DNA of 64,000 nt from an uncultured Ignavibacteria bacterium (GCA_964511075.1 CAZEDM010000008.1:34470-98469); one strand, 5' to 3'. Shown: positions 11,984 to 48,005, counted from the first letter of the stretch. A program made the numbers and translations. The notes: a model not told the origin generated them from the letters alone.

Positions 11984-11985
11984 AT

Positions 11986-24120: not shown

Positions 24121-25878
24121 TCAATCGTTTTCCAAGGTTGATAAATCCCCAACCGGCTCGCCTCTTTCCTGTGCCCGAAGCAGGCGCCGCATGATCTTTC
24201 CGCTTCTGGTTTTGGGCAGAGATTCAACAAACTCTATCTCCTGGGGCATTGCCAAAGGGGACAGTCTCTTACGGATGAAGTTCATAATATCCAATTCCAG
24301 GTCATCCGATTTTTCAAAGCCCGGTTTTAAAGCTACAAAGGCCTTGACCACCTCCATATTTATTGGATCTGGTTTCCCAATAGCGGCTGATTCTGCTACT
24401 GCCTGATGCTCTAAAAGGGCAGATTCCACCTCAAAGGGGCTGACCAGGTGTCCGGCAGTATTAATGACATCATCATCCCTTCCCACAAACCAGAAATACC
24501 CATCCTTGTCGATGCTGGACCTGTCTCCAGTCAGATACCAGCCGTTTTTAAATTTACTCTCATAGGTAAGGGGGTTATTCCAGTAAGCCCTGAACATAGA
24601 GGGCCAGCCCGGTTTAAGGGCAATCAAACCCACAGAGCCAATTTTATTGATAGGATTGTAGCTGGAGTCAAGCACAGTTGCCACAATTCCGGGAAAAGGT
24701 TTGCCCATGGAGCCGGGACGAACCTCCATCCCAGGGTAATTCGAGATGACAATAGCACCGGTCTCGGTCTGCCAGTAAGTATCATGGAAAGGAAGTCCGT
24801 AAACCTTCTTGGACCATATGACTGCTTCCGCATTCAATGGTTCCCCTACGCTGCATAGATGTCTTAAAGAGGACAGGTCAAACCTCTTCACAATCTCCTC
24901 TCCTCCCTTCATCAGAAGCCTTATGGCGGTAGGAGCGGAATACCAAACTGTTATCTTATGCCTCTGGATTAAACCATACCATTTCTCCGGCTGGAACCCG
25001 CTATCCAGGACCACCTGGGTGATACCCAGGCTCCACGGTCCAATAATTCCATAGGAGGTGCCGGTAACCCAGCCCGGGTCTGCAGTACACCAGTAGATAT
25101 CATCAGCTCCTAAATCCAGGCACCATTTCGTAGTTAAAGATTGCGCCAGTATAGAGTAGTGGACATGCAGAGCTCCTTTGGGTTTTCCAGTCGTGCCTGA
25201 GGTATAATGCAGAACCGAGGGTGTCTCAAAAGTGGTGGGGAAGATGTCAAACTCCTCCACCCTGTGAGCTTTTCTGACTGAATATGCTATCTCCTTTTCC
25301 TGAGGTTTGAAATTTTCATCATCCGTGGCAATGATGATCTTCTTGAGCTCAGGCAGCTGGTTTTTTATCCTCCTTATCCTTTTAATAAGTTTTGGAATGG
25401 TAACTATTGCAGAGGCTTTGCCATCTTCCAGACGGGTTAAAAGGGAATCCTCCCCAAAGGCTGAGAATAGTGGTGCTACTATTCCGCCCATCTTCAAGGT
25501 TCCCAGAAAAGAGAAATATAGGTCCGGCACCCGGTCCATAAAAACGAAGACCCTTTCTCCTTCTCTGATTCCTAAATCCCTTAGAAGCCGGGCGTAATTA
25601 TTAGAGTAGACCCTCAGATCATCAAAGGTGAATCTCTGTACCTCTCTGGTATACCCCTCCCAGATCATGGCAGGCTTTTTTCCATTTCCCTGCTGGCAGA
25701 TTCTGTCTGAACAGTAATAACCGATATTAAAGGGTAAGTCCTCTTTATAGCCTAATTCCTTCAGGGCAAATGGCCACTCAAAGTTTTTATATCTTTGATC
25801 ATAAGAACCTATGTTGCTCATTAGAATGACTCCTTCTTTCCTGAATAGTGTGCTTAAAAAACGTGGAAAAGATAACAT
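24121..25878 (-). CDS. AMP-dependent synthetase/ligase (acyl-CoA or acyl-ACP synthetase)
   Basis: AMP-binding motif YTSGTTGKPKG, plus GEP...TGD and SGKIMRR motifs. 585 aa. Confidence 0.8.
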   Translation of the reverse strand: MLSFPRFLSTLFRKEGVILMSNIGSYDQRYKNFEWPFALKELGYKEDLPFNIGYYCSDRICQQGNGKKPAMIWEGYTREVQRFTFDDLRVYSNNYARLLRDLGIREGERVFVFMDRVPDLYFSFLGTLKMGGIVAPLFSAFGEDSLLTRLEDGKASAIVTIPKLIKRIRRIKNQLPELKKIIIATDDENFKPQEKEIAYSVRKAHRVEEFDIFPTTFETPSVLHYTSGTTGKPKGALHVHYSILAQSLTTKWCLDLGADDIYWCTADPGWVTGTSYGIIGPWSLGITQVVLDSGFQPEKWYGLIQRHKITVWYSAPTAIRLLMKGGEEIVKRFDLSSLRHLCSVGEPLNAEAVIWSKKVYGLPFHDTYWQTETGAIVISNYPGMEVRPGSMGKPFPGIVATVLDSSYNPINKIGSVGLIALKPGWPSMFRAYWNNPLTYESKFKNGWYLTGDRSSIDKDGYFWFVGRDDDVINTAGHLVSPFEVESALLEHQAVAESAAIGKPDPINMEVVKAFVALKPGFEKSDDLELDIMNFIRKRLSPLAMPQEIEFVESLPKTRSGKIMRRLLRAQERGEPVGDLSTLEND

Positions 25879-25992
25879 CTTAAGAGGATTTTAGCAAGTC
25901 AAAAAACGGGTAGAATGCGGTTATCTTAGATTATCTACCATTCACTATGAACCATAAACCAAAAAAATCCCCCAGGGGAAGAAAAGCTTTTC

Positions 25993-26050
25993 TGAGGATG
26001 TACGAGATTGAACTACCACCCGCCTGCTCAAAAGGCAGATACTCGTATTG
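25993..26050 (-). pseudogene. Degenerate tRNA-Lys-like remnant (anticodon arm and 3' part only)
   Basis: TCTGCC-TTTTGAG-CAGGC matches the anticodon arm of the intact tRNA-Lys at 47934-48005. No D-arm or 5' acceptor. Part of the direct repeat 25690-26050. Confidence 0.35.
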
Positions 26051-26365
26051 TTAGACTATGCTTTTGCAGATTACAGGTTAAGACACAAAAAACTTGAATT
26101 TCAAAAAAAGGAGCTCCTTTTTTCTCCTATTAGGTTCACTTCGGCGTAGAAGACTTTACAGCCCCTCGTCCTATAGATCTTTTTCTAAGATAAACTTTTA
26201 GTGTCGTTTACCAAAAGATTATTTCATCCTCATTTATTCTGGGTGGCTCGATTCAAATCATGCCTCTTTTGAGAAATAAAGATAAAGTTGTGCTGCTCTT
26301 TGGATAGGATCAAACAGGGAGGTGCCCGGTTCCTCTTTACTTTCTCTGCTTCTCGTAAAGTAAAT

Positions 26366-27202
26366 TCACCAACCCTGTTTACTTGTCACCATCAGTTCAT
26401 TTGCCAACCTGAAGCATACTTTGTCAGGCAAGACTTGACGGAGATATTTTATGTTAACTCCCCCATCCGGAAGGGTATGGCCTATTTGGTTAACCTCTAC
26501 ACCTCTATGCCTGAGGAAGAAATTCAGATGTTGAGCCTCTTCCAGCAAGTATCTTCTGGCACTGACTCCAGTGAAGAACTTCTCAAGTTCAGTGCGGCTT
26601 TCTGTCCGCTCTATTGTTGCTAACCAGCCCTTCCCATATGGGTCCTCTTGTACCAGCTCCGGATGTTGAGCCAGTCCGGAATTTATTTGAACCAGATGTC
26701 CAGAGAGAGGGGTAGCTAAGAAAACCATTCCGGCAGAAGAGAGTATCTTTCCAAATACCTGATCCTGGGTAAGATCATTCTCCAGCTCGGAGAATTGCAA
26801 CTTAGCGGGTAGCGGAAGGACATATGCCAAAAGTTCGTCAACTCCTATTCTCCATTTCCGCCCTTCCAACGGTTGAGCCCATAGGTGAGAGGGGTGTAAA
26901 TAGACTCCTTCTCTCATCTCAACGGGCGTGAAGGTGAAAAATAGGAGGGGAGGATTTTTCCCACTTCCAGGGACGGGGCATTCTTCAGATTCTCTTAGAG
27001 ACTGAGATCTGTGCTGTTCGGCTTTTGATCGTATCTTTCTCGAACCGACATGAGAGCGCATGGCTTTGTCTAACTCACAGTGTTCACAGTCATAGTTAAT
27101 CGGACATAATTTATAGGAGATCACTCCTGCGGTCATCCAGATACAACGACCGTCCTGGTGGACAGGCTGGGCATCTTGTTTTTTTGATATATTCTTTTTC
27201 AT
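26366..27202 (-). CDS. Glycine-cleavage H-protein-like (lipoyl-domain fold) protein with N-terminal Cys4 extension; lipoyl-lysine position not conserved
   Basis: C-terminus PLSGHLVQINSGLAQHPELVQEDPYGKGWLATIE aligns with GcvH PVSGEVVEVNEAL..PELVN.DPYGEGWL. N-terminus carries C-x13-C-x5-C-x2-C. Last gene of the cytochrome/FeS/NrfD operon. Confidence 0.5.
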   Translation of the reverse strand: MKKNISKKQDAQPVHQDGRCIWMTAGVISYKLCPINYDCEHCELDKAMRSHVGSRKIRSKAEQHRSQSLRESEECPVPGSGKNPPLLFFTFTPVEMREGVYLHPSHLWAQPLEGRKWRIGVDELLAYVLPLPAKLQFSELENDLTQDQVFGKILSSAGMVFLATPLSGHLVQINSGLAQHPELVQEDPYGKGWLATIERTESRTELEKFFTGVSARRYLLEEAQHLNFFLRHRGVEVNQIGHTLPDGGVNIKYLRQVLPDKVCFRLANELMVTSKQGW

Positions 27203-27215
27203 AAAGATCGTTTTA

Positions 27216-28463
27216 TCAAAAGTTTTCCTCTGTACCTATCTCGCTATATTGTGGATATTCTCGGTGAACAGGCATACGGTTCACTATCCACCTGTAGGTT
27301 AAAATCTCAATGGTGATTATAGCCAGAACGATCAGTAATTCCTTCCAGTATATGAATACACGGTGCGGAAGTTTCCAGTTAAGGGCAATTAAGGAGACAT
27401 TGAAGCGGTTGACCGCCACTCCCAGTATGGTGAGAATGGCTGTAAACTGGGTCAGGACTACATTTCTCTTCTTCACCGCCAAGGCGAAAAGGAAACAAGG
27501 CAGAAGCACAAAGATAAAAATCTCCACCAGAAACCAGTGACCCCAAGAGGTATTCAGGAGGTTCCAGTGGTTACTGTGAGCCACGCCGATCCACTTCAGG
27601 CAGAAGTAGGCTAAGAGAACAAATGAAGCTGCTTTGCCTAAACCCAGGGTGAGGTTATCATAATTGGCGGCCTGGAGTGGATTTATCTGACTTTTGAGCG
27701 TTTTTTTGGATACCATAGCTACCACGATGATCATGGATAGTCCGGCGAAGATACTTGAAACGAAGAAAAACAGGGGGAGGAATTGTGAATACCAAAGCGG
27801 GTGAAGTTTTCCGGGGACTAAAAGAAACAGGGCGCCCAGAGCAGATTGGTGCAAGGTCGAGAGGATCACGCCGAAAATGGTGGCTCCCACGGTTATCTTC
27901 AAAGCCCACCTGCGAAATCTGTTTGCCCCAAGCCATTCGAAGATAGCAGGGCAGAACTCAACCAGCTGGGTTGAAAGATAGAGTGCCACATGCCAACCCA
28001 CCAGAAATAGAACTGAGCTTGTTCCATAGGAAACAACCATAGGATAGGGAAGCCTCCAGGGACGTCCTAAATCGAAGAGCAGAAATACTACGGCGAAGAA
28101 ATAACCCAGAAATCCGGTAAGTATAGCTGGTCGTACCAGGGGATGATAATCTTCAAGCCCGAAGATATAAACGGCTGCTGCCATGATGAAGCCGGTAGAG
28201 GCTAAGGGAACGCCGGTAAAAAGTCCCCAGTTAAGAAAAAGACTCCAGGGCTGGTCCTGTGAGGCATGGGTCACAGCCGCCAGGCCCTGGGTGAAGCGCA
28301 TGACCATAAAGGGTAGCCCTGCCAAAATAATTATTCCAGCAACAATATTGAAAGGCTTTAAAAGGTTTCTCAGGTAGTCTTTAACTGAAAGCCCCAGAAA
28401 AATCCTCTCCCTGATCCAGTTCTGGAAAACACTGGTTTTCTCAGCGTATTCGTACTCGGTCAT
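27216..28463 (-). CDS. NrfD/PsrC-family integral membrane quinone-interacting subunit
   Basis: About 10 transmembrane helices; NrfD-like motifs. Start overlaps the upstream FeS gene by 4 nt. Confidence 0.8.
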   Translation of the reverse strand: MTEYEYAEKTSVFQNWIRERIFLGLSVKDYLRNLLKPFNIVAGIIILAGLPFMVMRFTQGLAAVTHASQDQPWSLFLNWGLFTGVPLASTGFIMAAAVYIFGLEDYHPLVRPAILTGFLGYFFAVVFLLFDLGRPWRLPYPMVVSYGTSSVLFLVGWHVALYLSTQLVEFCPAIFEWLGANRFRRWALKITVGATIFGVILSTLHQSALGALFLLVPGKLHPLWYSQFLPLFFFVSSIFAGLSMIIVVAMVSKKTLKSQINPLQAANYDNLTLGLGKAASFVLLAYFCLKWIGVAHSNHWNLLNTSWGHWFLVEIFIFVLLPCFLFALAVKKRNVVLTQFTAILTILGVAVNRFNVSLIALNWKLPHRVFIYWKELLIVLAIITIEILTYRWIVNRMPVHREYPQYSEIGTEENF

Positions 28464-29389
28464 GCCTGCTCCTCCTTCCTCTCAGGGGTCCACTCCCCCT
28501 CCTTGAGCATTTGTTCCCGGTGTTTGGTGAACATGTAAAACCCGCCCAACAGGACAGGCCAGATTACCAATACAGCAGGGACCATGGTGAGAAATCCTCT
28601 GGTTAACTCTGGATAGGGCCTGGTGCCCACATCCATGGGAAACCCCAGCTTCTCAAAGGGAATTTCGGATATATATAGCCAGCTGGTTCCCCCAACTTCA
28701 CGCTCACCATAGATATGGTCAATGTATTTTTCGGGTTTGCTCCTTATCTTCTCTCTGGCTAATTTGATCAGCTCGCTCCTCCTGCCGAAGGTCAGAGCCT
28801 GAGTCGGGCAGATCTTCACACAGGCTGGACTTTCACCCTTTTTGATTATCCTCTCATAGCATAAGGTGCATTTTCTAATCCGAGGGGTGAATGGTTTATT
28901 GTATTCATAGGTTGGAATATAAAAGGGACAGGCGGTCATGCAGTAACGGCAGCCTATGCAGATATCCTTATTGTAAACCACCGCTCCCTCCGGAGTTTTC
29001 TTCAAGGCTGCTACTAAGCAGGCGGAGGCGCAAGCTGGTTCGTCACAGTGATTGCACTGTTTCTTAACATAGAAGGGCTTCTCCTCATCCCTCGGATTCG
29101 AATAGCGGTTGACCACGGTATAGCTTTCCTGGTCAGTTCTTCTCTTTTCCTCAAACACCGATTTGTCGTCAAATGTTTTTATAGGTTTATTGGGAAGTTT
29201 ATTCTGGTCCTTGCAAGCCCATTCACACTTTCGGCATCCGGTGCATAGAGGTATGTCGTGAAGCACGCCAAAGCGATCCGGGTAACCAGGAAGATTTTCC
29301 TGAGCCATGGCTTTTTTGTAACTTCCAATTAGGCTCGTGGATCCTATCGTTCCCAGAGTTTTCAGGAAACCCCTTCGATTGAGTGACAT
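28460..29389 (-). CDS. Tat-exported 4x[4Fe-4S] ferredoxin-like subunit (NrfC/PsrB/HmcB-like) with C-terminal transmembrane helix
   Basis: Twin-arginine signal NRRGFLKTLG. Four Cys clusters (CTGCRKCEWAC, CNHCDEPACASAC, CIGCRYCMTACP, CTLC...CVKICP). Confidence 0.85.
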   Translation of the reverse strand: MSLNRRGFLKTLGTIGSTSLIGSYKKAMAQENLPGYPDRFGVLHDIPLCTGCRKCEWACKDQNKLPNKPIKTFDDKSVFEEKRRTDQESYTVVNRYSNPRDEEKPFYVKKQCNHCDEPACASACLVAALKKTPEGAVVYNKDICIGCRYCMTACPFYIPTYEYNKPFTPRIRKCTLCYERIIKKGESPACVKICPTQALTFGRRSELIKLAREKIRSKPEKYIDHIYGEREVGGTSWLYISEIPFEKLGFPMDVGTRPYPELTRGFLTMVPAVLVIWPVLLGGFYMFTKHREQMLKEGEWTPERKEEQA

Positions 29390-29391
29390 GG

Positions 29392-30543
29392 TTATAATCT
29401 CCTTTCTTTGAGGGTTCCGGGGCTACTTTCAGGGTAGGCTCGGCCGTCATCGTGGCAATTTCCACAGGAGGGTTTATCCTCGAACCTTCTTTCCACATGG
29501 CACTCTGCGCAGTCCAGCTCCTGGTGGATTTCGTCCAGGACCAATCCGGTTACAGTATGATCAAAGTTCTCGGTGTTCCAATTGCTATGGCAGGAAACGC
29601 ACGCCGGTTTAAGTTTGGTTAACTTGCGCCCGGCGGGATGACAGGAGCGGCAGCTGAGAGCCTGGTGAAATCTATTCAATGGCCATCCGGTTCGAGCATG
29701 GTCAAAACCTTTCCTCTCACTCTGAGCATGACAGATGGAGCAGGTTTTCATGGTGTGACAGGTGATGCAAGGTTTGTGGTGCTCTTTGGAGGTTTTCATT
29801 GCCGGTTCAGGTTCTTCCCCTACCTCATGACAGCGAGTGCAGCTCTGCTCACTATGACAATTCACGCATTTAAGCTCAAACAGCTCCACATGATCTTTGT
29901 GATGGAAGGTTACCACCGGGCCATTGGCGTAGTTTGTATGATAGACTTTTTTGTCCGGCACGGTTATAGTTGGATGCTTTGTCCCGATAATATCGGTGGT
30001 GTCGATCTTTTGCATAGACATCTCTCCAGGTGTTTTTTTTGCATGACAGATATCGCAGGCAGTGCTGTGGCTCCATTCCCTGTGACAGTTCATACATTGA
30101 CGATGATAAGCTCCCTTGAGCCCGGGCTGACGCAGATCCTCCGGATTTAAAGGGCCACCGTGGCACTCCCTGCAGGGAGGTATGTGACCGGGAGGAGCAT
30201 AGTGGTGGCAGACTGCACATCCTTGACCCATCTCCGCCATTTCAGCATGCAGCTTATGGGCGAATATCACCGGCTTAAACAAATCCTCAAGCTGATTTAA
30301 GATAACCACCTCTGGCCCTTCTTCAGGAGTATGGGGACTCATTTTCTCGGGAAAGCGAGGACAGGACCGGAGACAAGGGTCATTTTTAGTAGGAGTAAAA
30401 CAGATATGGCAGTCACTGCAGGTTGCGTCTGCCGGGAACTCATGAGCAGGTTCGTTTTTCTCTCCCATACTGCTTGTAGAAACCAGGAGAATAAAAATAC
30501 CCGTAGCCAAGATGCTACTCATAACCATTTTGCTGAACACCAC
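29392..30543 (-). CDS. Periplasmic multihaem cytochrome c with 13 CxxCH motifs
   Basis: Signal peptide. 13 CxxCH motifs counted in 383 aa. First gene of a tightly coupled three-gene module. Confidence 0.85.
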   Translation of the reverse strand: MVFSKMVMSSILATGIFILLVSTSSMGEKNEPAHEFPADATCSDCHICFTPTKNDPCLRSCPRFPEKMSPHTPEEGPEVVILNQLEDLFKPVIFAHKLHAEMAEMGQGCAVCHHYAPPGHIPPCRECHGGPLNPEDLRQPGLKGAYHRQCMNCHREWSHSTACDICHAKKTPGEMSMQKIDTTDIIGTKHPTITVPDKKVYHTNYANGPVVTFHHKDHVELFELKCVNCHSEQSCTRCHEVGEEPEPAMKTSKEHHKPCITCHTMKTCSICHAQSERKGFDHARTGWPLNRFHQALSCRSCHPAGRKLTKLKPACVSCHSNWNTENFDHTVTGLVLDEIHQELDCAECHVERRFEDKPSCGNCHDDGRAYPESSPGTLKERRL

Positions 30544-30574
30544 ATCTCCTTTTTAGTTTTTATTTTACGTGTAT

Positions 30575-31246
30575 TTATTTTATATTAAAAAACTCTCTGG
30601 CTACCTTATTCCATTGTTGTATGGTTAATTCATCCCCTAAATCAGGTTTGATCTCGCCTCCCTCCTGTAACACTGGAAATTCAGCCGGGACTAATACTGA
30701 TATTAAATGCTCTTTGGCAGCCTGATTCCAACGTTTAAGCAGTTCACCAGAAAGAAGATTTCTCAGTTCTCGAGAGAGATTAATCGGTTCAATTTTTAAA
30801 ATCCAGTTCTTTTCCGGGTCCTCACGATTCAGAAGGATTGGCTCCTCAGCCAGTTTTTTATTGACCTCCACAACCCTTCCACTAATAGGGGAGGCCTGAA
30901 CCAATTCCCTATTGTCTCTTTTTATCTTCCAGGCGCTGCTTCCCTGGTATATTCTGTCCCCACGCTTAGGCAGTTCTATCTCTTTAACCGATCCGAAAAC
31001 CGAAGAGGTGAACTTATCCATGCCAATATTCACCAGGTTAGGCTGGATCACCTCTGCCCAGGTATGGTTTGGATGTGTGAACACTCCCCTGATCATCCTG
31101 GAAGCTTCAGTCATAAATTGTCTCACCGGGCGGTAGACAGGGGTATTTAACAATCTCCAGAAAAGAATGATTATAAACATGAAGGCGATAGCTATCAGGT
31201 ACTCATTAGCTTTGGTAGCAAGTAAGAATTCTTGAAGAGTTTGCAT
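30575..31246 (-). CDS. Membrane-anchored GcvH-like (lipoyl-domain fold) protein, paralog A
   Basis: N-terminal transmembrane helix. HTWAEV...IGMDKFTSSVFGSV...PISGRVVEVNKKL...NWILKIE aligns with GcvH (HEWV...VGITD.AQ...PVSG.VV.VN..L...GWL.K). No Lys at the lipoylation position. Confidence 0.5.
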   Translation of the reverse strand: MQTLQEFLLATKANEYLIAIAFMFIIILFWRLLNTPVYRPVRQFMTEASRMIRGVFTHPNHTWAEVIQPNLVNIGMDKFTSSVFGSVKEIELPKRGDRIYQGSSAWKIKRDNRELVQASPISGRVVEVNKKLAEEPILLNREDPEKNWILKIEPINLSRELRNLLSGELLKRWNQAAKEHLISVLVPAEFPVLQEGGEIKPDLGDELTIQQWNKVAREFFNIK

Positions 31247-31312
31247 ATAAAGCTCCTTTGATGAGGTATCTTCTTAAAAAAACCTGTTTACCTTTATCCT
31301 TATATCTATGGC

Positions 31313-31972
31313 TTAATCCGTTGAGTCAAAAAACTCCCGGTTGACCTTCTCCCACTGTTCGGAGGTTAATTCGTTCCCCAGGTCAGATTTAATTTCCCCG
31401 CCCTCCTGCAGGACAGGAAATTCTGCCGTGGTCAAAGTAGCTACGAGCTGATCCTTAACCGCCTGATTCCAGCGCTTCAGGATGGTTCCGTGTAGCAGGT
31501 TCTGGAGCTCTCCTTTCATTCTATCCGGTCTGATTTTTAATATCCAATTCCTTTCAGTATCCTTCTGGGTTAAAAGCTTAGGATTATCCGCCAGCTCCTG
31601 GTTTAAAGCCACCACCGTGCCGCTAATGGGTGAAGTCTGAGTCAACTCTCGGTTTCCCCTTCTTAATAACCAGGCTTTTTCTCCCTGATGAATCCGGCTT
31701 CCCACAGGAGGAAGAGATAACGCCTCGACTGAGCCGAAAACTGATGTGGTGAAATCGTCCACTCCCACTGTAATTAAACTGGGATCGAGAACCCTGACCC
31801 AAGCATGACCTGGGTGCACGAAAATTCCCTCTAAGGCGGAGGGGAGCTTCAACTTGGTGGTCAAGGGGGTTTTCTCTTCTGCTGGGGCAACGGCCTTTCT
31901 TTGACGCCAGATACCAATTCCTATGGCTAAAGCCACGAAAAGTAAAATAAGGATTACCGACATTTCAATCAC
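31313..31972 (-). CDS. Membrane-anchored GcvH-like protein, paralog B (tandem duplicate of 30575-31246)
   Basis: About 45% identical to paralog A by eye. HAWVRV...VGVDDFTTSVFGSV...PISGTVVALNQEL...NWILKIR. Confidence 0.5.
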   Translation of the reverse strand: MIEMSVILILLFVALAIGIGIWRQRKAVAPAEEKTPLTTKLKLPSALEGIFVHPGHAWVRVLDPSLITVGVDDFTTSVFGSVEALSLPPVGSRIHQGEKAWLLRRGNRELTQTSPISGTVVALNQELADNPKLLTQKDTERNWILKIRPDRMKGELQNLLHGTILKRWNQAVKDQLVATLTTAEFPVLQEGGEIKSDLGNELTSEQWEKVNREFFDSTD

Positions 31973-31998
31973 CTCGCTTTTTCCTAATAGTTAACCTC

Positions 31999-35438: not shown

Positions 35439-35460
35439 AAAAAGTGGTTTAGCTATCAAG

Positions 35461-35497
35461 AAAACCGACCCTGGCCTTCACATGGGTCGGTTTTCTT
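35461..35497 (+). terminator. Rho-independent terminator after the T9SS cytochrome gene
   Basis: AAAACCGACCC-loop-GGGTCGGTTTTCTTAT. Confidence 0.5.
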
Positions 35498-37163: not shown

Positions 37164-37169
37164 GGAGAG

Positions 37170-38394: not shown

Positions 38395-38440
38395 GATTCG
38401 GGGAAGGGATTTGTAGAACAGGACATAAAAAGGAAATGGG

Positions 38441-39493: not shown

Positions 39494-39601
39494 CCCAGAA
39501 GTTTTTTCACTTGACATAATCTCTTATTTTAGATATAATCAGAACTAAAATTGTCTTTTTTGTGAAGAAAATAACAAGTATCACAAAAGAGAGATTGATT
39601 G

Positions 39602-40054
39602 ATGGCTGAAGAAGGCGAAAAGAAAATCTCCAGGCGGTCTTTTCTGGACCGTCTTATAGTCGGCTCTATGTTCGTATCTGCCTTAGCAGTGCTTGGCTCA
39701 GTTTTGACCTATATTTACCCGCCGAAGAAAGAGGGTGGGGCAGAAAGAGCAGAGAGGGTTGAGGTTGCCTCTTTAGCTGATCTACCTGTTGGCAAAGCCA
39801 AGCCGGTGGTATATCAGAACAAAAATGTCATGGTGATGCACGTGCAGGCTGGGCTTTTTGCCGTGAGTATGAAATGCACTCACCTGGGGTGTATGGTGGA
39901 ATGGGAGGAAGGTCCTCAGACCTTGAAATGTCCCTGCCATGCCGCCTTTTTCGACTATCAGGGAAAGGTGATCTCTGGCCCTGCACCCAAGCCCCTCCCC
40001 GCCTATAAGGTAGAGGTGGCAAATGATATCATATACGTTACCGGATTAGCCTAA
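39602..40054 (+). CDS. petA: Rieske [2Fe-2S] subunit of a cytochrome bc-type complex
   Basis: Tat-like SRRSFLDRL plus transmembrane helix. Rieske boxes CTHLGC and CPCH. Confidence 0.85.
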   Translation: MAEEGEKKISRRSFLDRLIVGSMFVSALAVLGSVLTYIYPPKKEGGAERAERVEVASLADLPVGKAKPVVYQNKNVMVMHVQAGLFAVSMKCTHLGCMVEWEEGPQTLKCPCHAAFFDYQGKVISGPAPKPLPAYKVEVANDIIYVTGLA

Positions 40055-40056
40055 GG

Positions 40057-40800
40057 ATGGATGAGAAGGGAAAAAAGATAGGTCCGAAACTCAAACGCTG
40101 GACTGAGGAGAGATTCAACCTCAGGCAGTTGGTGGGTGTTCTTTTAAATATATTCCCGGTGATCTATGGGGAATTAGATCAGAGATTAGACGTAAAAGAG
40201 GGGTTGCAAAAACTACTCAAGAAGCCGGTACCCAAGGGGTTAAGCTTTCTGCATTGTTTCGGGGGAATGACCTTTCTTCTGTTTGTGATTCAGGTCTTTA
40301 CCGGTATACTTTTAGCCATATATTATAAACCTTCAGCTGCAGATGCCTACACCAGCGTCAAATACATCACCGATACAGTGCCCCTGGGCTGGCTGATAAG
40401 GCAGATCCATGCCTGGGGTGCGAATCTGATGGTAATCACCATGTTCGTACATATGCTGAGGGTGTATTTTCATGGTGCCTTTAAAAATCCCAGGGAGCTG
40501 AACTGGATGGTGGGGACGGTTTTGTTTATACTCACCTTAGCTTTTGGATTTACCGGCTATCTTCTTCCCTGGGATCAGAGGTCCTACTGGGGTACAACCA
40601 TAGGGACTGAGGTAGCAGGCGGTGTTCCCTTTATCGGTAAATATCTTCTGATTATCCTGAGAGGCAGCCTCAACGTGACCGGTGATACTTTAACCCGGTT
40701 TTATTCTGTGCATGTCCTTATACTTCCCTGGGTGACAGCTCTTTTTCTGGCGCTTCATTTCGCCATGGTGAAAAGGCAGGGGGTTGCCAAACCTCTGTAA
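40057..40800 (+). CDS. petB: Cytochrome b6-like subunit (N-terminal half of split cytochrome b)
   Basis: Four-helix cytochrome b N-terminal pattern with conserved His pairs (RQIHAWGANLMV...FVHMLRVYFHGAF; GYLLPWDQ.S.W). Confidence 0.8.
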   Translation: MDEKGKKIGPKLKRWTEERFNLRQLVGVLLNIFPVIYGELDQRLDVKEGLQKLLKKPVPKGLSFLHCFGGMTFLLFVIQVFTGILLAIYYKPSAADAYTSVKYITDTVPLGWLIRQIHAWGANLMVITMFVHMLRVYFHGAFKNPRELNWMVGTVLFILTLAFGFTGYLLPWDQRSYWGTTIGTEVAGGVPFIGKYLLIILRGSLNVTGDTLTRFYSVHVLILPWVTALFLALHFAMVKRQGVAKPL

Positions 40801-40837
40801 AAATAGTGAGAAGTTAAAGGGAATACGAAGGGATAAG

Positions 40838-41326
40838 ATGGAAGCAGAGAAAGAGAAGAAAAACAATGAGGGGATGGAAGAGGGAAAGCCTTTTTATCCT
40901 AATCATTTCCTGAAGGAAGTTATCGTAGCTTTCCTTCTTTTTGGGGTTCTCCTAAGCTTAGCTGTTTTTTTCCCCTTTCCTTTTCATGAGAAAGCTAATC
41001 CCTTTCAAACCCCTGAGGGGATCAAGCCGGAATGGTATTTTCTGGCTGGGTATCAGATGTTGAAATATGTGCCTAAGGTGGTGGGGATTGTGGGGATAGG
41101 AATTGTGATGGTTATTCTTTTTATAGTTCCCTTCCTTGAAAGAAGTCCAGAACGTCATCCTTCGAAAAGGAGATTTGCCCGAGCGATTGGTGTGGTGGTG
41201 ATAATTTTCGCTGTCCTCTTTTCACTCTTGGGCTATCTATCTGAATCGACTCAGACTGTTTTGGGAAAGAAATATCATTTCGATCTAAAAGGGGTTCCCT
41301 ATAAAGTTGAGGAGCCAAAAAAATAG
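40838..41326 (+). CDS. petD: Subunit IV-like protein (C-terminal half of split cytochrome b)
   Basis: PEWYFLAGYQMLKYVPK matches the cytochrome b C-terminal/subunit IV PEWY motif. Three transmembrane helices. Start placed at the ATG after the petB stop. Confidence 0.7.
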   Translation: MEAEKEKKNNEGMEEGKPFYPNHFLKEVIVAFLLFGVLLSLAVFFPFPFHEKANPFQTPEGIKPEWYFLAGYQMLKYVPKVVGIVGIGIVMVILFIVPFLERSPERHPSKRRFARAIGVVVIIFAVLFSLLGYLSESTQTVLGKKYHFDLKGVPYKVEEPKK

Positions 41327-42583
41327 ATGAGAAGGGACATTTTTAGAAAAATCAGCCTGCTGGTAATAACCGTTTTTTTCTTCTATAGGCCTGTCCTTCC
41401 CCAGGACATTGAATCGTATTCCTGTATGGTCTGTCACGGTGAAAAGAAGGTGGAATATCTGAAGAGCATCCATTGGGAGAAGGAGATGTGGTGCGCTGAT
41501 TGTCATGGTGGAGACCCTTCCAGCCTGGATCCAGAGGTTTCCATGTCAGCTAGGGCCGGGTTCAAGGGAAGGTTTACCAAAAAAGAGGTGGTTTACCTGT
41601 GCGGAAATTGTCACGCGGACAAAAAAAGGATGAGACAATACGGGATATCCACTGATCAGTTAGATTATTACCGTACGAGTGAGCATGGAATAGCTCTTCT
41701 TAAAAAGAACGATCCGAGTGTGGCTGGATGCGTGGACTGCCATGGTAGCCACAGCATTACCTCCGTGAAAGACCCGGAGAACAAGGTTTTCCCCACTAAT
41801 CTTCCCCAGACTTGCGCCATGTGCCATTCGGACAAAAAACTCATGGAGAAATATGGTCTGCCTTACAATACCTTAGAGGAATATGTCTCAAGCGTTCACG
41901 GTAAGGCGCTTTTGGAGAAAAACGACAGGTCAGCTCCTACCTGTGCAGGTTGTCACAGTAGCCATGGTGCAGCTCCTCCTGGTGTTACAGAGATAGAGAA
42001 TGTGTGCGGGAAATGCCATATCAATTCAGAGACGAATTTCGCCAAGAGCCCACATCTGGAGGCTATGAGGAAGATGAATCTGTCACAGTGCGCCTCCTGC
42101 CACCAGCATCACTCTATTAAATATCCAGATATATCCATGTTCGATCAGGTATGTTCAAATTGCCACGAGCCCGGATCAGGCGCCTATAAGAGAGGACAGC
42201 AGATAAAAGCTCTGATCCTGGAGGCACAGGACCAGATACAGAAGGCAAAGGAGTTAATCCAGAAGGGCAAATCCAGGGGACTGGATGTCTCTCAGTTCGA
42301 GCCTGAATTGGAACAAGCCAATACCGCCATGTTGCAGGTTCTGCCAGTAACTCACAGTCTGGTCCTCTCTAAGGTCGAGGAGATAACCAGCAGCGCCAGA
42401 ACCTTAGCCGGAGAGATATCCGCTTCCGTTCACAACTATCTGGAATCATTACGCCTGAGAAAGGTGGGGTTAGGGATTGTCTGGCTTTTTATCTTTTTCG
42501 TGGTGGTGATATTGTATATAAAGGTGAAGAGGGCAGATAGTGAATTCGAATTAGCTCAGCAAAAAAATAAAGGAAAAGACTGA
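41327..42583 (+). CDS. Membrane-anchored 9-haem cytochrome c, the likely c-type subunit of the bc complex
   Basis: Nine CxxCH. C-terminal transmembrane helix LGIVWLFIFFVVVILYI. Start abuts the petD stop. Confidence 0.8.
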   Translation: MRRDIFRKISLLVITVFFFYRPVLPQDIESYSCMVCHGEKKVEYLKSIHWEKEMWCADCHGGDPSSLDPEVSMSARAGFKGRFTKKEVVYLCGNCHADKKRMRQYGISTDQLDYYRTSEHGIALLKKNDPSVAGCVDCHGSHSITSVKDPENKVFPTNLPQTCAMCHSDKKLMEKYGLPYNTLEEYVSSVHGKALLEKNDRSAPTCAGCHSSHGAAPPGVTEIENVCGKCHINSETNFAKSPHLEAMRKMNLSQCASCHQHHSIKYPDISMFDQVCSNCHEPGSGAYKRGQQIKALILEAQDQIQKAKELIQKGKSRGLDVSQFEPELEQANTAMLQVLPVTHSLVLSKVEEITSSARTLAGEISASVHNYLESLRLRKVGLGIVWLFIFFVVVILYIKVKRADSEFELAQQKNKGKD

Positions 42584-42608
42584 GTTCTCAACAGAGGTGT
42601 CCATTTAG

Positions 42609-42647
42609 TAAAACCGATGCCTTTTCACCGAGGTGTCGGTTTTATTC
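42609..42647 (+). terminator. Possible rho-independent terminator (stem with two G.U pairs, then a T-run)
   Basis: AAACCGATGCC-loop-GGTGTCGGTTTTATT. Confidence 0.35.
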
Positions 42648-42670
42648 CGTTAGTTTAGAAGGGTGCGGAG

Positions 42671-44677
42671 ATGAGACTGGATTTTTTCAAGCAGGAAAAA
42701 TTTAAGAAGAGAATGATCAGGGCGGGCAAAGTTCTTCTGGCTCTTTTAGTCTTTGGGGTTATTTTAACCTTCATAGGCGTGGAATACAGCGCCAAGCCGG
42801 AGTTCTGCATCACCTGTCATTATATGCAGCCCTATTATGACGGCTGGAAAACCTCCACCCATAACATGGTCTCCTGCGTGGACTGTCACTACCCACCGGG
42901 AATAGAAAGCGAGCTGAGAGGTAAGTTCGAGGCCTTAGTCTCAGTGGCTAAATATGTTACCGGCACCTACGGAAAAAGCAGACCCTGGGTGGAGATAAGT
43001 GACCAGAGCTGCCTGAGGTCTGACTGTCATGAGAAAAGACTGCTTCAGGGCAAGGTGAGCTTTGGGAATATCCTTTTCGACCATACTCCACATCTGTTTG
43101 AAATGAAAAGGGGGATGAAGCTGCGCTGTACCAGCTGTCACTCTCAGATAGTCCAGAGAGTCCATATGACAGTCACCAATAACACCTGTTTCCTCTGTCA
43201 TTTTAAGGAAGTTGAAGGAGAGATGCCCCTGGGCGGATGTCCCTCCTGTCATGGTGCTCCAACCTCGATAGTGGAATATCAGGGGATAAAATTTGATCAT
43301 AAAGAGGCGGTGAAGCTCGGAATAGACTGCATGAAATGTCATTTTGATGTGGTGCAGGGACAGGGGAACGTCTCCAAAGAGAGATGTTTTAACTGCCATA
43401 CTGAGCCTGACCGTCTGGAGAAATACCAGGACGTTTTGCTGATGCATATGTATCATGTGACCAACCATAAGGTAGACTGTTTGAGATGTCACGAGGAGAT
43501 CAAGCATCAGATGATCTCTATGGCGAAGTCCATAGAGGTGGATTGCAACTCCTGTCATCCAGCTCATCATGTGGCTCAGAAGGAGCTTTTCATAGGGACA
43601 GGCGGAAAAGGAGCAGAGCAGATTCCTGACCCCATGTTCCTTGTGCGGGTGAGCTGTACAGGCTGTCATATCTCTCACCAGGGAGATGAACTTAAAGGAA
43701 AGACTGCCTTTGCCTCACCGGCTGCCTGTATCTCATGCCACGGGTCGAATTACGGGCAGATCCTGGAGGAGTGGAAGATGGTAATGAGCAAATCGCTTTC
43801 CCAGATATCTCCGATTTTAAGCCAGGCGGAATCCGAACTGAAGACAACTGCAACCAAGGGGGAGGCTTTTCTAAAAGGCAAGGCACTGATAAGCGAAGCC
43901 AAATCCAATATAGATCTGGTGAGGGAGGGTAAGGGGGTACACAACATAAAATACTCCATCCATCTTTTGGAAGTTGCTCATCAGAAGCTCAAACAGGGAT
44001 TGAAGGCACTCGGTTCTAAATATCAGGTCCCCGCATTGGCCTTGCCTTCGCTAACTCCCAAGACCGAGTGCTATACCTGTCATTTAGGGGTAGAGACCAA
44101 GACCGTTTCAGCCTTCGGGTTGACCTTTCCCCATCAGGCACATTTAGTTAAAGCCAATATACCCTGCGGAAGCTGTCATTCCAATGAAAGAGTACATGGA
44201 GAGCTGATTCTGAAGAAGGAGAGTTGTACCAGCTGTCATCACATCAAAAGAGGAGACTGCCAGGGCTGTCATCCGGTTCAGGAGGAATTTCGCCAGGGAT
44301 TTGAGGTTTTGGATTATGACTCAATCCCCGCCCCTATGGCGGATTTAAGTTGCAAGGACTGTCATTCCGAGATTGAATTTCAGCAGACATCAAGGGTAGT
44401 CAGAGATGCCTGTGTCAACTGTCATGATAAAGATTATATCCAGATTCTGGAGGAACAGCAGCAGGAGATAAAAGAGCGTATACAGGAAGCAAGGGATTTT
44501 GTGTCCCGCTTTGAGGGAAAAGGGAAGCTCAGCTCTGAGCAGCAGGAGAAAATAGATTATATTCAGGAAAGAATAGACCTGATGGAAAAGGACAAAAGCC
44601 TTGGCGGCCATAATTATAACTTAAACCAGAGAATGCTTGAGGATATCAAAGGGGTGATGGAGGAGTTAGGAGGTTAG
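42671..44677 (+). CDS. NapC/NirT/NrfH-like membrane quinol dehydrogenase fused to a large multihaem domain (17 CxxCH + 1 CX4CH) with C-terminal coiled coil
   Basis: N-terminal transmembrane helix then CITCH...CVDCH...CLRSDCH...CTSCH (NapC-like tetrahaem layout), followed by 14 further CxxCH. 668 aa. Confidence 0.8.
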   Translation: MRLDFFKQEKFKKRMIRAGKVLLALLVFGVILTFIGVEYSAKPEFCITCHYMQPYYDGWKTSTHNMVSCVDCHYPPGIESELRGKFEALVSVAKYVTGTYGKSRPWVEISDQSCLRSDCHEKRLLQGKVSFGNILFDHTPHLFEMKRGMKLRCTSCHSQIVQRVHMTVTNNTCFLCHFKEVEGEMPLGGCPSCHGAPTSIVEYQGIKFDHKEAVKLGIDCMKCHFDVVQGQGNVSKERCFNCHTEPDRLEKYQDVLLMHMYHVTNHKVDCLRCHEEIKHQMISMAKSIEVDCNSCHPAHHVAQKELFIGTGGKGAEQIPDPMFLVRVSCTGCHISHQGDELKGKTAFASPAACISCHGSNYGQILEEWKMVMSKSLSQISPILSQAESELKTTATKGEAFLKGKALISEAKSNIDLVREGKGVHNIKYSIHLLEVAHQKLKQGLKALGSKYQVPALALPSLTPKTECYTCHLGVETKTVSAFGLTFPHQAHLVKANIPCGSCHSNERVHGELILKKESCTSCHHIKRGDCQGCHPVQEEFRQGFEVLDYDSIPAPMADLSCKDCHSEIEFQQTSRVVRDACVNCHDKDYIQILEEQQQEIKERIQEARDFVSRFEGKGKLSSEQQEKIDYIQERIDLMEKDKSLGGHNYNLNQRMLEDIKGVMEELGG

Positions 44678-44904
44678 AATTTATTTACCTTTTGTCAGCA
44701 TAAGATTAGGAAGATTTACATGTTGCGTTGAATAGTGATGTTGATAGTCAAAAAAAATGAACCCTTGCGATACAGGTCAGATTGAGATCCCATTCTATTC
44801 AGGAAGTAACGAGATATTGGAGGGCGATGGTAGTTTTACTCATCTTAAGTGGATTTTTACGTATACTCTAAGTTGGATAAGAAAACAGAGGAGAGAAAAG
44901 AAAA

Positions 44905-45270
44905 ATGAAGTTAAAATATGTTGTAGGCCTAGGGGTGATCTTGGTATTCATAATTTTTGGTGCCTTATCTTTCAGGAAGAACCTTACCCCTTATGTGGGG
45001 TTCAAGGAAGCCAAGAGCTTAAACACCTCTGTGCAGATAATAGGTGTGGTGATACCGGAGGAGACCAGTTATGACCTTGAAAATCATAAGCTCTACTTCA
45101 GCTTGAAAGACCCTCAAGGCGAAAAGATGCGAGTTATTTATCCGGGGGTTAAACCGGCTAATTTCGAGCAGGCTACTAATATCGTGGCTATTGGCAGATA
45201 TCAGGAAGGGGAATTTTTAGCTGATCAGGTTCTGGTCAAATGCCCCTCCAAATATCAGGGAGAAGATTAA
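44905..45270 (+). CDS. ccmE: Cytochrome c maturation haem chaperone CcmE, Cys-variant (CxxxY instead of HxxxY)
   Basis: N-terminal anchor. OB-fold core (VQIIGVV...YFSLKD..GEKMRVIYPGVKPANFEQATNIVAIGRY). C-terminal KCPSKY. Confidence 0.75.
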   Translation: MKLKYVVGLGVILVFIIFGALSFRKNLTPYVGFKEAKSLNTSVQIIGVVIPEETSYDLENHKLYFSLKDPQGEKMRVIYPGVKPANFEQATNIVAIGRYQEGEFLADQVLVKCPSKYQGED

Positions 45271-47451
45271 ATGGTTTTAGGAGACTTATTTTTATGGCTG
45301 TGTTTTGTAGGGGCAGTTTTTTCTGCCCTTCTTTTTCTTTTGAGCGCCAAAGGGGATAGGAGGATATTCTCCTGGGGTAAAAAAGCTTATTACCTGACTT
45401 TCCTTTTTTCCTCCTTTGCCACTTTTCTCCTTTTTTATCTTTTTTTAACTCATGATTTTCAAACCTCCTATGTATTCAGTTACAGCTCAACCGATCTGCC
45501 ATTCTTTTACCTTATTTCCTCTTTCTGGGCGGGGCAGGAGGGGACCTTCCTCTTATGGCTTTTCATCGGACTTCTTTTGGGCCTTTTCCTGATTAACAGA
45601 AAGGGAGACGAGCTGCAAAGTCATCTTTTGTTTTTCTTCCTTACAGCTCAGATATTCCTGCTGGTTTTGCTTTTAAAGAAAAGCCCTTTTGAGCTTTTGC
45701 CAGAAACGCCCCTGGAGGGCCGGGGCCTTAACCCCCTTTTGAAAGACCCCTGGATGGTATCACACCCTCCTTTGATCTTCATCGGCTATGCCGCGCTGGC
45801 TATTCCCTTTGCCTATGCCTTGGCAGCCTTGATCAAGGATAAATATGATAGCTGGATAAAATTCTCCCTGCCCTGGGTTGGATTTTCAGCGCTGAGCTTG
45901 GGTGCTGGGATTTTCGTGGGAGGATTCTGGGCTTATAAGGTCTTAGGATGGGGAGGGTACTGGGGGTGGGACCCGGTGGAGAATGCCTCGTTGATTCCCT
46001 GGCTCACCACCATAGCTTTATTTCATGGAATTATTCTGGAGAGAAATAAAAAAAGTCTAAAAAAGACCAATCTTTTCCTTGCCCTGATCTCATTTCTCTT
46101 GGTTATCTATGGCACCTTTCTTACCCGCAGTGGGATCTTAGCTGATTTCTCTGTTCATTCCTTTGCTGATCTGGGGATTAATCAGTATCTTATTTTCTTT
46201 ATGCTTTTGTTTACTGCCTTCTCCTTGGGTCTTTTGGCTTTTCGCTCTTCAAAGCTAAAGGGTGCGGAAACTGGCAAATCCATTCTATCTCAGGACTTCG
46301 TCATCCTTCTGGGAATGATCTTTATATCCTTATCCGCGGTCTTGATCCTGGTTGGAACCTCCGCTCCTATCATAACCGGGATCTTGGGCCAAGCCTCAAA
46401 TGTCTCTGCGCCCTATTATGTCCGAACACATCTACCCCTTGCCATTGTTTTGGGATTACTCTTAAGCCTTACGCCATTTTTATCCTGGAAGGAGATAAAA
46501 GTCAAAGTGTTAGCAAGGAATATAGCTCTTCCCCTGGGGATTGCCGTGATCTTCTCACTCATAGCCTGGATATCGGGAGTAAGAAAATTATCCTATTTTC
46601 TCTTCCTCTTTTTTTCAAGCTTCCTTGTGATTTCGAATTTAATGATTTTTTACAAAAGGTTAAAAGGAAATCTCCTCAACACCTCAGGTTATTTAACCCA
46701 TATAGGGGTAGGCTTAATGTTCATAGGTATCCTCACCTCTTCCGCATATTCCGAATCTGAGAAACTGAACCTACCAGAAGATGAGCCCAAGGCAGCATTC
46801 GGTTATCAGCTTACATTTAGGGGCGAGGAGAATCCATCTCCCAAAGAGGGGAATTCTCTTTTAGTAGAAGTGAAAAAGGGAACAGATGACTTCATTGCCA
46901 AACCCAGGCTTTACTGGAGCGAATATAGTCAGGCGATGATGAGAAAACCAGCCATCAAAAGAAAGCTGACCGAAGATATCTATTTTGCGCCGCTGGAATA
47001 CAGCCAAAGGGAGCTTATCTTCTCTGAGCCCTTTAGCTTATCCAAGGGAGAGGAAAAGGAGATCGAGGGGTATAAGATTAAATTCCTAAGTTTTGATATG
47101 ACGCCACACCAGCAGGGTGGAGAGTTCAGGGTCGGGGCTGTGCTGGAGGTCAAGCACCAGGGCCAGAAATCAACTGCCACGCCAGCCATTGTTTTCAAAG
47201 AACAGAATCAGATGGCCCAGATAGAAGCTCAATTGCCAGACGACAAGCTGATCTTTTTGGAAAAGGTGATGGCTGATCAGAAGATGGTAGTTCTCAGTAT
47301 CGCCCTGAGGAAAAAAGAGAGTGGAGAGATTCTGGTATTGGAGGTCAGCAGAAAGCCTTTAATTAACCTTCTATGGCTGGGCATGATCGTGGTTATGGCA
47401 GGACTTTTTTTAACTACCTGGAGGGAGAAGCAAAGAAGCCCAAAACCATAG
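45271..47451 (+). CDS. ccmF: Cytochrome c-type biogenesis protein CcmF (System I haem lyase component)
   Basis: WWD domain WGGYWGWDPVENASLIPW. Polytopic membrane protein. 726 aa. Confidence 0.85.
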   Translation: MVLGDLFLWLCFVGAVFSALLFLLSAKGDRRIFSWGKKAYYLTFLFSSFATFLLFYLFLTHDFQTSYVFSYSSTDLPFFYLISSFWAGQEGTFLLWLFIGLLLGLFLINRKGDELQSHLLFFFLTAQIFLLVLLLKKSPFELLPETPLEGRGLNPLLKDPWMVSHPPLIFIGYAALAIPFAYALAALIKDKYDSWIKFSLPWVGFSALSLGAGIFVGGFWAYKVLGWGGYWGWDPVENASLIPWLTTIALFHGIILERNKKSLKKTNLFLALISFLLVIYGTFLTRSGILADFSVHSFADLGINQYLIFFMLLFTAFSLGLLAFRSSKLKGAETGKSILSQDFVILLGMIFISLSAVLILVGTSAPIITGILGQASNVSAPYYVRTHLPLAIVLGLLLSLTPFLSWKEIKVKVLARNIALPLGIAVIFSLIAWISGVRKLSYFLFLFFSSFLVISNLMIFYKRLKGNLLNTSGYLTHIGVGLMFIGILTSSAYSESEKLNLPEDEPKAAFGYQLTFRGEENPSPKEGNSLLVEVKKGTDDFIAKPRLYWSEYSQAMMRKPAIKRKLTEDIYFAPLEYSQRELIFSEPFSLSKGEEKEIEGYKIKFLSFDMTPHQQGGEFRVGAVLEVKHQGQKSTATPAIVFKEQNQMAQIEAQLPDDKLIFLEKVMADQKMVVLSIALRKKESGEILVLEVSRKPLINLLWLGMIVVMAGLFLTTWREKQRSPKP

Positions 47452-47627
47452 TCCATATATGAGAAAAGACCAGGTTAGATAAAAATCTCCGGATTTTTTA
47501 AGTTGTATCTGACTCTCCGGAATTAGTTCCTGCATAAAAATATATCAATTTGCGTCATCTGGACTGTTTCAGCTGGTTCACGTTCACGATGTAAAGTCGA
47601 AGCCGATTTTTTTAATTTCCCTACTGG

Positions 47628-47815
47628 CAGATTCTGTCTAGGCAGTCACAACCGATATTTAAAGGGGAGCCTTGCAGGTAGCCTAATTCCTCCAGGACAA
47701 ATGGCTACTCAAAGTTTTTATATCTTTCCTCATAGGAAATATGTTGCTCATTGGAATAACTCCTTGTTTCCTGAATTAGGTGCTTTAAAAACGGGGAAGA
47801 GGTAATATACTAAGA
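47628..47815 (-). pseudogene. Degenerate 5' fragment of an AMP-ligase gene, paralogous to the start of 24121-25878
   Basis: About 80% nucleotide identity to 25700-25880. In-frame TAG where the intact gene has TGG (E-W-P becomes E-stop-P), and TAA upstream of the internal Met. No continuing ORF. Confidence 0.5.
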
Positions 47816-47896
47816 AAGTTTATACAAGCCCAAAAAACGGCAGAATATGGTTTTTAGATTATCTACCATCCGCTATGAACCAGAGACCATTAGTCA

Positions 47897-47932
47897 AAAA
47901 AATCCTCTCACAAAGAGTGAGAGGATTTTTTT
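47897..47932. terminator. Bidirectional rho-independent terminator (A7-stem-T7) immediately 3' of tRNA-Lys
   Basis: AAAAAAATCCTCTCACaaagaGTGAGAGGATTTTTTT. Confidence 0.55.
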
Positions 47933-47933
47933 C

Positions 47934-48005
47934 TGAGGGTGGATGGGATCGAACCATCGGCCACCTGCTTAAAAGGCAGATGCTCTACCACTGAGCTACA
48001 CCCCC
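47934..48005 (-). tRNA. tRNA-Lys (anticodon TTT)
   Basis: Manually folded. Acceptor GGGGGTG/CACCCTC, D-arm GCTC-AGTGGTA-GAGC, anticodon arm TCTGC-CTTTTAA-GCAGG (positions 34-36 = TTT), T-arm GATGG-TTCGATC-CCATC, discriminator A. No encoded CCA. Confidence 0.85.

Follow-up and report, generated by a model that had tools for sequence, protein, structure and literature searches.

The 64,000-nt window analyzed here, a stretch of the genome of an uncultured Ignavibacteria bacterium (GCA_964511075.1 CAZEDM010000008.1:34470-98469; coordinates are counted from the first letter of the window), contains two imperfect direct copies of a segment that runs from a lysine tRNA gene (tRNA-Lys) into an acetate-CoA ligase gene, one on each side of a block of respiratory genes. 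On balance, we interpret this arrangement as the scar of an old rearrangement within the chromosome, in which two native blocks of 11.3 and 21.5 kb swapped their order by duplication and reciprocal loss; our confidence in this interpretation is moderate because the ancestral order that it requires was not observed. The locus is probably not the outcome of integrase-mediated island capture, nor is the repeat likely to be an integration site. The observations on which this view is built are the repeat itself and its limits, the complementary decay of its two copies, two ancestral adjacencies found in relatives, the sister relationship of the copies, and the lack of both mobility genes and a compositional difference. 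Read along the minus strand, the window presents an M50 peptidase gene, tRNA-Lys, a ligase stub, the cytochrome cluster, a dead tRNA copy, the ligase block, and a kinase/regulator pair. Both ancestral adjacencies are broken in this order, namely tRNA-Lys directly upstream of the ligase and the NrfD/cytochrome cluster directly upstream of the kinase/sigma-54 regulator pair.

The repeat was delimited by a global alignment of the minus strand, which carries every feature of interest here. Its left copy occupies positions 25676-26068 and its right copy 47607-48006, in the same orientation, and each extends from the 5' end of the tRNA through the terminator and the spacer to approximately codon 49 of the ligase. 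Over the whole repeat, the copies are 76% identical (292/386), with 13/26 matches at tRNA positions 1-26, 37/48 at tRNA positions 27-74, 18/30 in the terminator, 101/130 in the spacer, and 125/153 in the 5' part of the ligase; the identity of 34-44% found just past both ends in the same forced alignment was taken as background. Beyond the 5' end of the tRNA, no homology hidden by transitions could be seen (13 transitions versus 23 transversions). An earlier note on this DNA had placed the repeat at 25690-26050 and 47628-47990 with an identity of ~80%; the repeat and its orientation are real, but the copies are longer and slightly less similar than described there, and the extension past the tRNA, put at ~300 bp in the same note, measures ~325 bp beyond the whole tRNA. 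The decay of the two copies is complementary, the left one combining a dead tRNA with an intact ligase and the right one an intact tRNA with a ligase stub containing three stops, a pattern that had been noticed before and that ARAGORN and Rfam, the alignment, and the translations all support. Each duplicated function is therefore kept in one copy only (the tRNA on the right and the ligase on the left), as duplication followed by reciprocal loss would lead one to expect.

When tRNA genes were called in the window with ARAGORN and Rfam, both reported a single one, the functional tRNA-Lys(UUU) at 47933-48006 on the minus strand (Rfam tRNA, 73.8 bits), so that the right copy is indeed intact, as first thought. 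This gene is 100% identical to the tRNA-Lys of L091 and L092, two of the 159 loci (L numbers) that were compared, the ligase having served to fetch related loci and closer proteins. A promoter-like site (TTGACA-16-TATTTT) lies upstream of it at 48075-48102 on the minus strand, within a block that is kept in L091 and L092 and is absent upstream of the left copy. Because this site is outside the repeat, the left tRNA copy probably never had a promoter. Downstream, the intact tRNA is followed by a terminator hairpin at 47893-47932 on the minus strand (AATCCTCTCACTCTTTGTGAGAGGATTTTTTT), which was recognized by direct reading, was not reported by a consensus terminator scan, and aligns with the hairpin of the left copy. 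The left tRNA itself, at 25992-26068 on the minus strand, was identified by alignment to the intact gene, ARAGORN giving no match and Rfam none even at E<=10. It is a dead copy of full length, identical to the intact gene at 47/72 sites and changed at 25/72, with 22 transitions and 2 transversions that mostly convert G/C to A/T. The suggestion that only a 3' part without D-arm remains on this side did not hold, since the 5' half is present: at positions 1-26, all 13 differences between it and the intact gene are transitions, and the purine/pyrimidine pattern of tRNA positions 2-20 (19 nt) occurs only twice in the 64 kb, both strands counted, at the two copies, versus an expectation of 0.24. 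The divergence of the dead tRNA is ~3-fold that of the neutral ligase stub (35% versus 12%) and nearly all of it consists of transitions (22 to 2). Hypermutation was considered as the cause of this all-transition decay and set aside in favor of AT-biased mutation relaxing a GC-rich gene, which probably explains the decay while accounting incompletely for the excess.

The intact ligase gene (24121-25821, minus strand, start ATG at 25821) encodes a 566-aa protein with a Pfam AMP-binding domain, and its homologues carry the name acetate--CoA ligase in their source records. The left end of the repeat consists of the first 146 nt of this gene (25676-25821). A start at 25878 had been proposed for this gene, but the exact protein is found in contig _1706 of the Logan assembly discussed below and is on record only with the start at ATG 25821. 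The remainder of the left copy is made up of the terminator (hairpin at 25968-25982) and the spacer (together 25822-25991, minus strand, defined by alignment), which is the working promoter and ribosome-binding-site region of the ligase and is 84% identical to its L091 counterpart. In the right copy, the ligase is represented by a stub at 47607-47751 on the minus strand (start ATG at 47751), ~82% identical to 25676-25821 and corresponding to approximately the first 49 codons; translations reveal a 1-nt deletion and three in-frame stops, confirming the pseudogene fragment of the first reading. The spacer between this stub and the tRNA (47752-47892, minus strand), ~78% identical to 25822-25961, corresponds to the ligase promoter and ribosome-binding-site region and now has no gene to serve. 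Terminator and spacer of the right copy together show 24 changes that are unique to this copy.

The first of the two ancestral adjacencies is evident from the relatives with the closest ligases. In L091, whose ligase is 94% identical, genes for an electron transfer flavoprotein (ETF), a cytochrome, superoxide dismutase (SOD), and an M50/CBS peptidase are followed by tRNA-Lys, the ligase, an 83-aa open reading frame (ORF), and an aminotransferase, i.e. both flanks of the window adjoin with no insert. The tRNA is also directly upstream of the ligase in L092 (ligase 87%) and in L002, a complete chromosome of 2.72 Mb (ligase ~83-84%), so that the existence of an empty site in relatives is established. 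L001 (ligase 84%), on the other hand, shows the same flanks with a different insert of 7.3 kb (2627-9967) in the spacer between tRNA-Lys and ligase, which points to this spacer as an insertion-prone site. The L001 insert encodes a 1675-aa Ser/Thr kinase-TPR-GAF-sigma-54 activator, a truncated sigma-54 activator, and a helix-turn-helix protein, and neither an integrase nor flanking repeats were found for it.

The second ancestral adjacency emerged when the interior was traced elsewhere using CcmF and NrfD as queries. In eight related contigs (L082, L093, L095, L097, L098, L100, L103, and L105), the NrfD module adjoins the HAMP histidine kinase, the sigma-54 regulator, and the M54 peptidase, on the same strand and with gaps to the kinase of ~120-220 bp, compared with 11.3 kb in the window. 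Nucleotide similarity to both L082 and L093 ends at 26364, immediately after the final gene of the NrfD module and its stop codon, and resumes at 15080 (L082) or 14943 (L093). These breakpoints, together with Pfam, delimit an 11.3 kb ligase block (15081-26363) in the window, where L082 has only 49 bp. Seen from the kinase side, the inserted piece is therefore the ligase block and not the respiratory genes, because the NrfD module abuts the kinase genes in relatives. In L093, the NrfD module is also accompanied by the T9SS (type IX secretion system) cytochrome and the three genes after it, inverted with respect to the window, and L082 carries remnants of two cytochrome genes and then ccmEF, in the order of the window. 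Thus, with respect to the kinase pair, the cytochrome cluster is ordered and oriented as it is in relatives, and the two are separated only by the ligase block, which in turn keeps its own order and orientation relative to tRNA-Lys and M50.

An intact tRNA at one end and a partial repeat of its 3' part at the other had been taken in the earlier note as a classic att-site signature enclosing an acquired electron-transfer island. Islands mobilized by tyrosine integrases, for example those at tRNA-Lys in Pseudomonas, have attL and attR sites formed from a 3' segment of the tRNA. Such a history would here imply that a tyrosine-integrase element carrying the cytochrome genes entered the 3' end of tRNA-Lys and has since lost its integrase, which we regard as highly improbable. 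The locus shares with these islands the intact tRNA at one end and a degenerate, tRNA-derived repeat at the other, a site that is unoccupied in relatives, and a variable block beside the tRNA, the spacer following tRNA-Lys being variable in L001 too. However, the repeat starts at the first base of the tRNA, includes all of it, and extends ~325 bp further, reaching into the neighbor gene, at an identity of ~76%, with no short 3' core. No integrase, transposase, or recombinase was found by Pfam in any ORF of >=80 aa in the 64 kb, in agreement with the earlier statement that no integrase is present, and the short ORFs of the 814-bp internal gap, which were only listed, do not resemble an integrase remnant. 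The interior has no megablast match in plasmid or phage collections and matches the flanks in composition: blocks A, B2, C, and D have a GC content at third codon positions of 0.49-0.55 and B1 (the SBBP/dockerin pair) one of 0.43, the codon usage of the cytochrome cluster correlates with that of B2, the right flank, and the far right region at 0.90-0.92, among the highest values of the comparison, and tetranucleotide correlations are 0.90-0.94. Finally, the presumed cargo is native in relatives, the NrfD module being contiguous with the chromosomal kinase, sigma-54 regulator, and M54 peptidase in the eight contigs mentioned above. The locus therefore mimics a tRNA-targeted island but fails its defining features.

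The relationship between the two copies is also informative with regard to their origin. With L092 as the outgroup and counting informative sites outside the tRNA, 8 sites group the left with the right copy, versus 2 that group the left copy with L091 and 3 that group the right copy with L091, which argues for a duplication in the window lineage after its split from L091. The copies are sisters relative to L091 over their whole length, which points to duplication within the lineage rather than to a foreign attP and thus further weakens the case for an acquired island. The eight derived sites common to both copies occur throughout the repeat without a donor/recipient block pattern, a distribution that fits internal duplication and, equally, a donor identical to the recipient lineage. 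Among ~314 sites, unique changes number 37 in the right copy (12%), 15 in the left copy, and 9 in L091. Because the four-fold-site divergence between the window and L091 is 0.20-0.25, or ~0.12-0.15 per lineage, the 37/314 changes of the right copy make the event nearly as old as the window/L091 split, in line with the old event suspected in the earlier note. An exact-pattern scan of metagenome contigs for the lineage-specific core of the spacer gave no match.

A donor from the same lineage or a very close relative is what a Campbell-type insertion would involve. Here, a circle carrying the cytochrome cluster and the stretch from tRNA-Lys to the 5' part of the ligase would have entered the chromosome by one crossover, a possibility that we consider rather unlikely. 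As with suicide plasmids or episomes that carry a chromosomal fragment, a single crossover would leave the full homologous segment as a direct repeat on each side, with one complete and one truncated ligase, as observed, and would need no site-specific recombinase, in keeping with the result of the Pfam search. The empty site in relatives, the different integrase-free 7.3 kb insert in the same spacer of L001, and the mosaic nature of the NrfD module between relatives also speak for it. On the other hand, the circle would need the cluster to be joined already to the tRNA-ligase stretch, the same unobserved adjacency that duplication and loss requires, and the kinase pair would have to have abutted the ligase block, whereas eight relatives show it abutting the NrfD module. 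Only by chance would the cluster have landed with the order and orientation that it usually has with respect to the kinase pair, the copies are sisters over their whole length with no mosaic of the kind that a diverged donor would leave, and the interior has no compositional difference. Moreover, no vector-like or circular element is evident, and the insert is the neighboring native cluster.

Because the sequence comes from a metagenome assembly, a contig misjoined across a repeat common to two co-occurring strains could in principle produce the same picture, as the earlier note had cautioned. The Logan contigs, a separate assembly of run SRR14802573, are 100% identical to the window at 24074-47994 (contig _1706, 23,921 bp) and at 3376-16771 (the retrieved part of contig _6131), and they cross the whole left copy, the junction between ccmF and the ligase stub, most of the right copy, and the junction between the kinase and the ligase block. 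The two ends of contig _1706 fall within the tRNA (47994) and shortly beyond the ligase (24074), which might be viewed as favoring a misjoin. However, the only remaining join, from the tRNA to M50, is the ancestral one seen in L091 and L001, and the two copies, at ~76% identity and with a longest common exact word of ~21 nt by eye, offer too little for an assembler to cross. Taken together, the exact Logan contigs, the difference between the copies, and the ancestral nature of the remaining join make a mis-assembly very unlikely, to the point that we can hardly credit it.

Swapping of two native blocks by duplication and reciprocal loss, which we favor, may most simply have proceeded in three steps. 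A duplication taking in the segment from the tRNA 5' end into the ligase would have come first, either as a tandem duplication of the ligase block plus the cluster or as a copy of the ligase block pasted between the cluster and the kinase. Redundant parts would then have been deleted, with the ligase copy beside M50 cut to ~49 codons, and the leftover redundancy would have decayed, the second tRNA, probably a promoterless copy, becoming unrecognizable. The event would have taken place in the window's own lineage soon after the split from L091 and would have been inherited since. Scenarios based on inversions only, worked through by hand, were rejected, as they cannot yield the observed orientations or the direct duplication. 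The tandem-duplication/random-loss model is established for animal mitochondrial genomes, in which pseudo-tRNAs and gene stubs mark the lost copies. The present locus resembles those cases in that native blocks are reordered, a dead tRNA and a gene stub stand in complementary fashion at the new boundaries, and mobility genes are absent; it differs in that it concerns a bacterial chromosome and blocks of 11 and 21 kb, with an ancestral adjacency that is unobserved and one filler that departs from the prediction.

Several points weigh against a swap of this kind. The order needed before a single swap, with ccmF beside the ligase block, occurs in no relative examined; downstream of ccmF, L082 has unrelated genes (methyltransferase, pilins, and secretin) and L155 another tRNA, and in L156-L158 the SBBP/dockerin pair has other neighbors. 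The lack of this prior adjacency weakens the swap without excluding it, because the relatives are short metagenome contigs from lineages with rearrangements of their own; the origin of L082, L091, and L156 from a single genome is not established. None of the three junction fillers (15081-15284, 26069-26363, and 47452-47606) has a homologue in the 159 loci or the window, so that the breakpoints cannot be reconstructed, and the filler at 26069-26363 is unlike the intergenic region upstream of the kinase, contrary to a plain tandem duplication. No remnants of other lost copies survive, positions 16771-24074 of the window are outside the independent Logan coverage, and recombination between lineages does occur here, given the mosaic NrfD module. 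The probability that is left over from the readings weighed in this text belongs to multi-step histories. The literature searched contained nothing specific to this locus.

With respect to the composition of the blocks, the right flank comprises the M50/CBS peptidase gene (48153-49223, minus strand) and the Fe/Mn SOD gene (49494-50072, plus strand), both assigned by Pfam, which also precede tRNA-Lys in L091 and L001. The interior was assigned by Pfam in the same way, and the gene content of the earlier note proved broadly correct, with the NrfD module, the T9SS-tailed multihaem cytochrome, the Rieske/cytochrome b genes, and CcmE/CcmF all recognized; its putative "porin" is a 416-aa protein (37144-38394) encoded among the multihaem cytochrome genes that has no Pfam match. 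This protein is conserved in L093 at 75%. The cytochrome cluster (32787-44677, plus strand) contains the T9SS-tailed multihaem cytochrome, further multihaem cytochromes, the 416-aa protein, Rieske, cytochrome b, and cytochrome b-C genes, and a NapC/NirT-like multihaem protein. The NrfD module (26366-31972, minus strand) encodes two GcvH-like proteins, a cytochrome c3/c7, a 4Fe-4S protein, NrfD, and a third GcvH-like protein. The three GcvH-like (PF01597) paralogues (26366-27202, 30575-31246, and 31313-31972) thus share one operon with NrfD, the 4Fe-4S protein, and cytochrome c3, an odd partner set for an NrfD-type quinone module that is kept in at least eight related contigs. The module is mosaic when L082 (2945-4633) is compared with L093 (7806-10001): relative to the window, the L082 kinase is 95% identical at the amino acid level, but its 4Fe-4S protein is 61% and its cytochrome c3 ~35% identical, whereas the corresponding values for L093 are 79, 85, and 76%. 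These sequence comparisons suggest that allelic replacement may have occurred inside the NrfD operon.

The ccmE-ccmF pair (44905-47451, plus strand, Pfam) is detached from ccmABCD. Together with L082 (7825-10383) and L155 (1023-3584), it forms a group of 84-100% identity that is found in three different contexts, whereas the canonical ccmABCDEF of relatives (L081, L087, and L089 compared), located after Dxr, RseP, a cytochrome, and a signal peptidase and before tRNA-Arg and tRNA-Glu, is 72-78% identical to the window pair. From these comparisons, the window pair is probably a second haem-lyase pair dedicated to the neighboring multihaem cytochromes. The end near the ccmF stop codon that is shared by the similarity of the window, L082, and L155 was considered as a recombination site and rejected, as conserved coding sequence simply ends there, and nothing in the window is homologous to the genes that follow ccmF in L082. 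The ligase stub is separated from the stop codon of ccmF by a filler of 155 bp (47452-47606) with the terminator-like hairpin of ccmF, and between the stop codon of the NrfD module and the dead tRNA lies a filler of 295 bp (26069-26363), which contains a 20-nt palindromic hairpin (26104-26123) detected as a self inverted match.

On the far side of the dead tRNA, the ligase block holds, besides that tRNA and the ligase, two SBBP/dockerin proteins (B1, 15285-18653), a response regulator, a PAS hybrid kinase, an aminotransferase, and an 83-aa ORF. It is adjoined by block A (11447-15080, minus strand, defined by Pfam and synteny), which comprises the HAMP histidine kinase, the sigma-54 response regulator, the M54 peptidase, and the upstream region of the kinase, its genes lying at 11447-14932. 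Secreted SBBP beta-propeller and dockerin-domain proteins with internal repeats (repeat families D1, D2, and D5) are encoded at 15386-18666 and 9733-11394, and L156-L158 retain the pair at 15285-18653 together, next to different neighbors. A promoter-like element (TTGAC...TATAAT) with a leader (CCAGTTGCGAAACTCGTCCAGT) is present at 4549-4645 and 8925-9021 of the window, at 6834-6848 of L082, and at 154-168 and 354-368 of L156. It matches no Rfam family, recurs in front of unrelated genes, and in relatives sits where synteny with the window breaks; it was looked for at the window's own junctions and is absent there. A gene for a small RNA and a shared regulatory leader are two possibilities for this element.

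Flexible islands and plasticity zones next to tRNAs offer a further comparison, given that the tRNA-Lys/ligase spacer holds 21.5 kb here, 7.3 kb in L001, and nothing in L091, L092, and L002, and that ccmEF is found in three contexts; unlike in such zones, however, the content here is a conserved respiratory cluster with another fixed position in relatives and not foreign strain-specific DNA. A broader reading, in which this spacer and the ends of respiratory modules (the NrfD module, the porin-cytochrome genes, the bc-type complex, and the detached ccmEF) would be recurrent breakpoints, is hinted at by the L001 insert, the contexts of ccmEF, the mosaic NrfD module, and the promoter-leader element at breaks of synteny. 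A Zixibacteria-like lineage would then reshuffle or exchange whole electron-transfer modules between close relatives by homology-driven, integrase-free means, with the 400-bp repeat as one footprint, but we hold this to be quite doubtful.

The locus has implications for the prediction of genomic islands, as an intact tRNA, a degenerate tRNA repeat, and an empty site are here more likely to reflect the reshuffling of native blocks. For this reason, the present evidence gives no grounds for listing the cytochrome cluster among horizontally acquired genes. The swap would also represent a dated change of gene order in a bacterial chromosome whose scars are a dead tRNA and a gene stub. From a regulatory point of view, the rearrangement means that the NrfD/cytochrome cluster no longer adjoins the kinase/sigma-54 regulator pair, its neighbor in relatives, and now lies between two terminators, which could alter the regulation of these respiratory genes.

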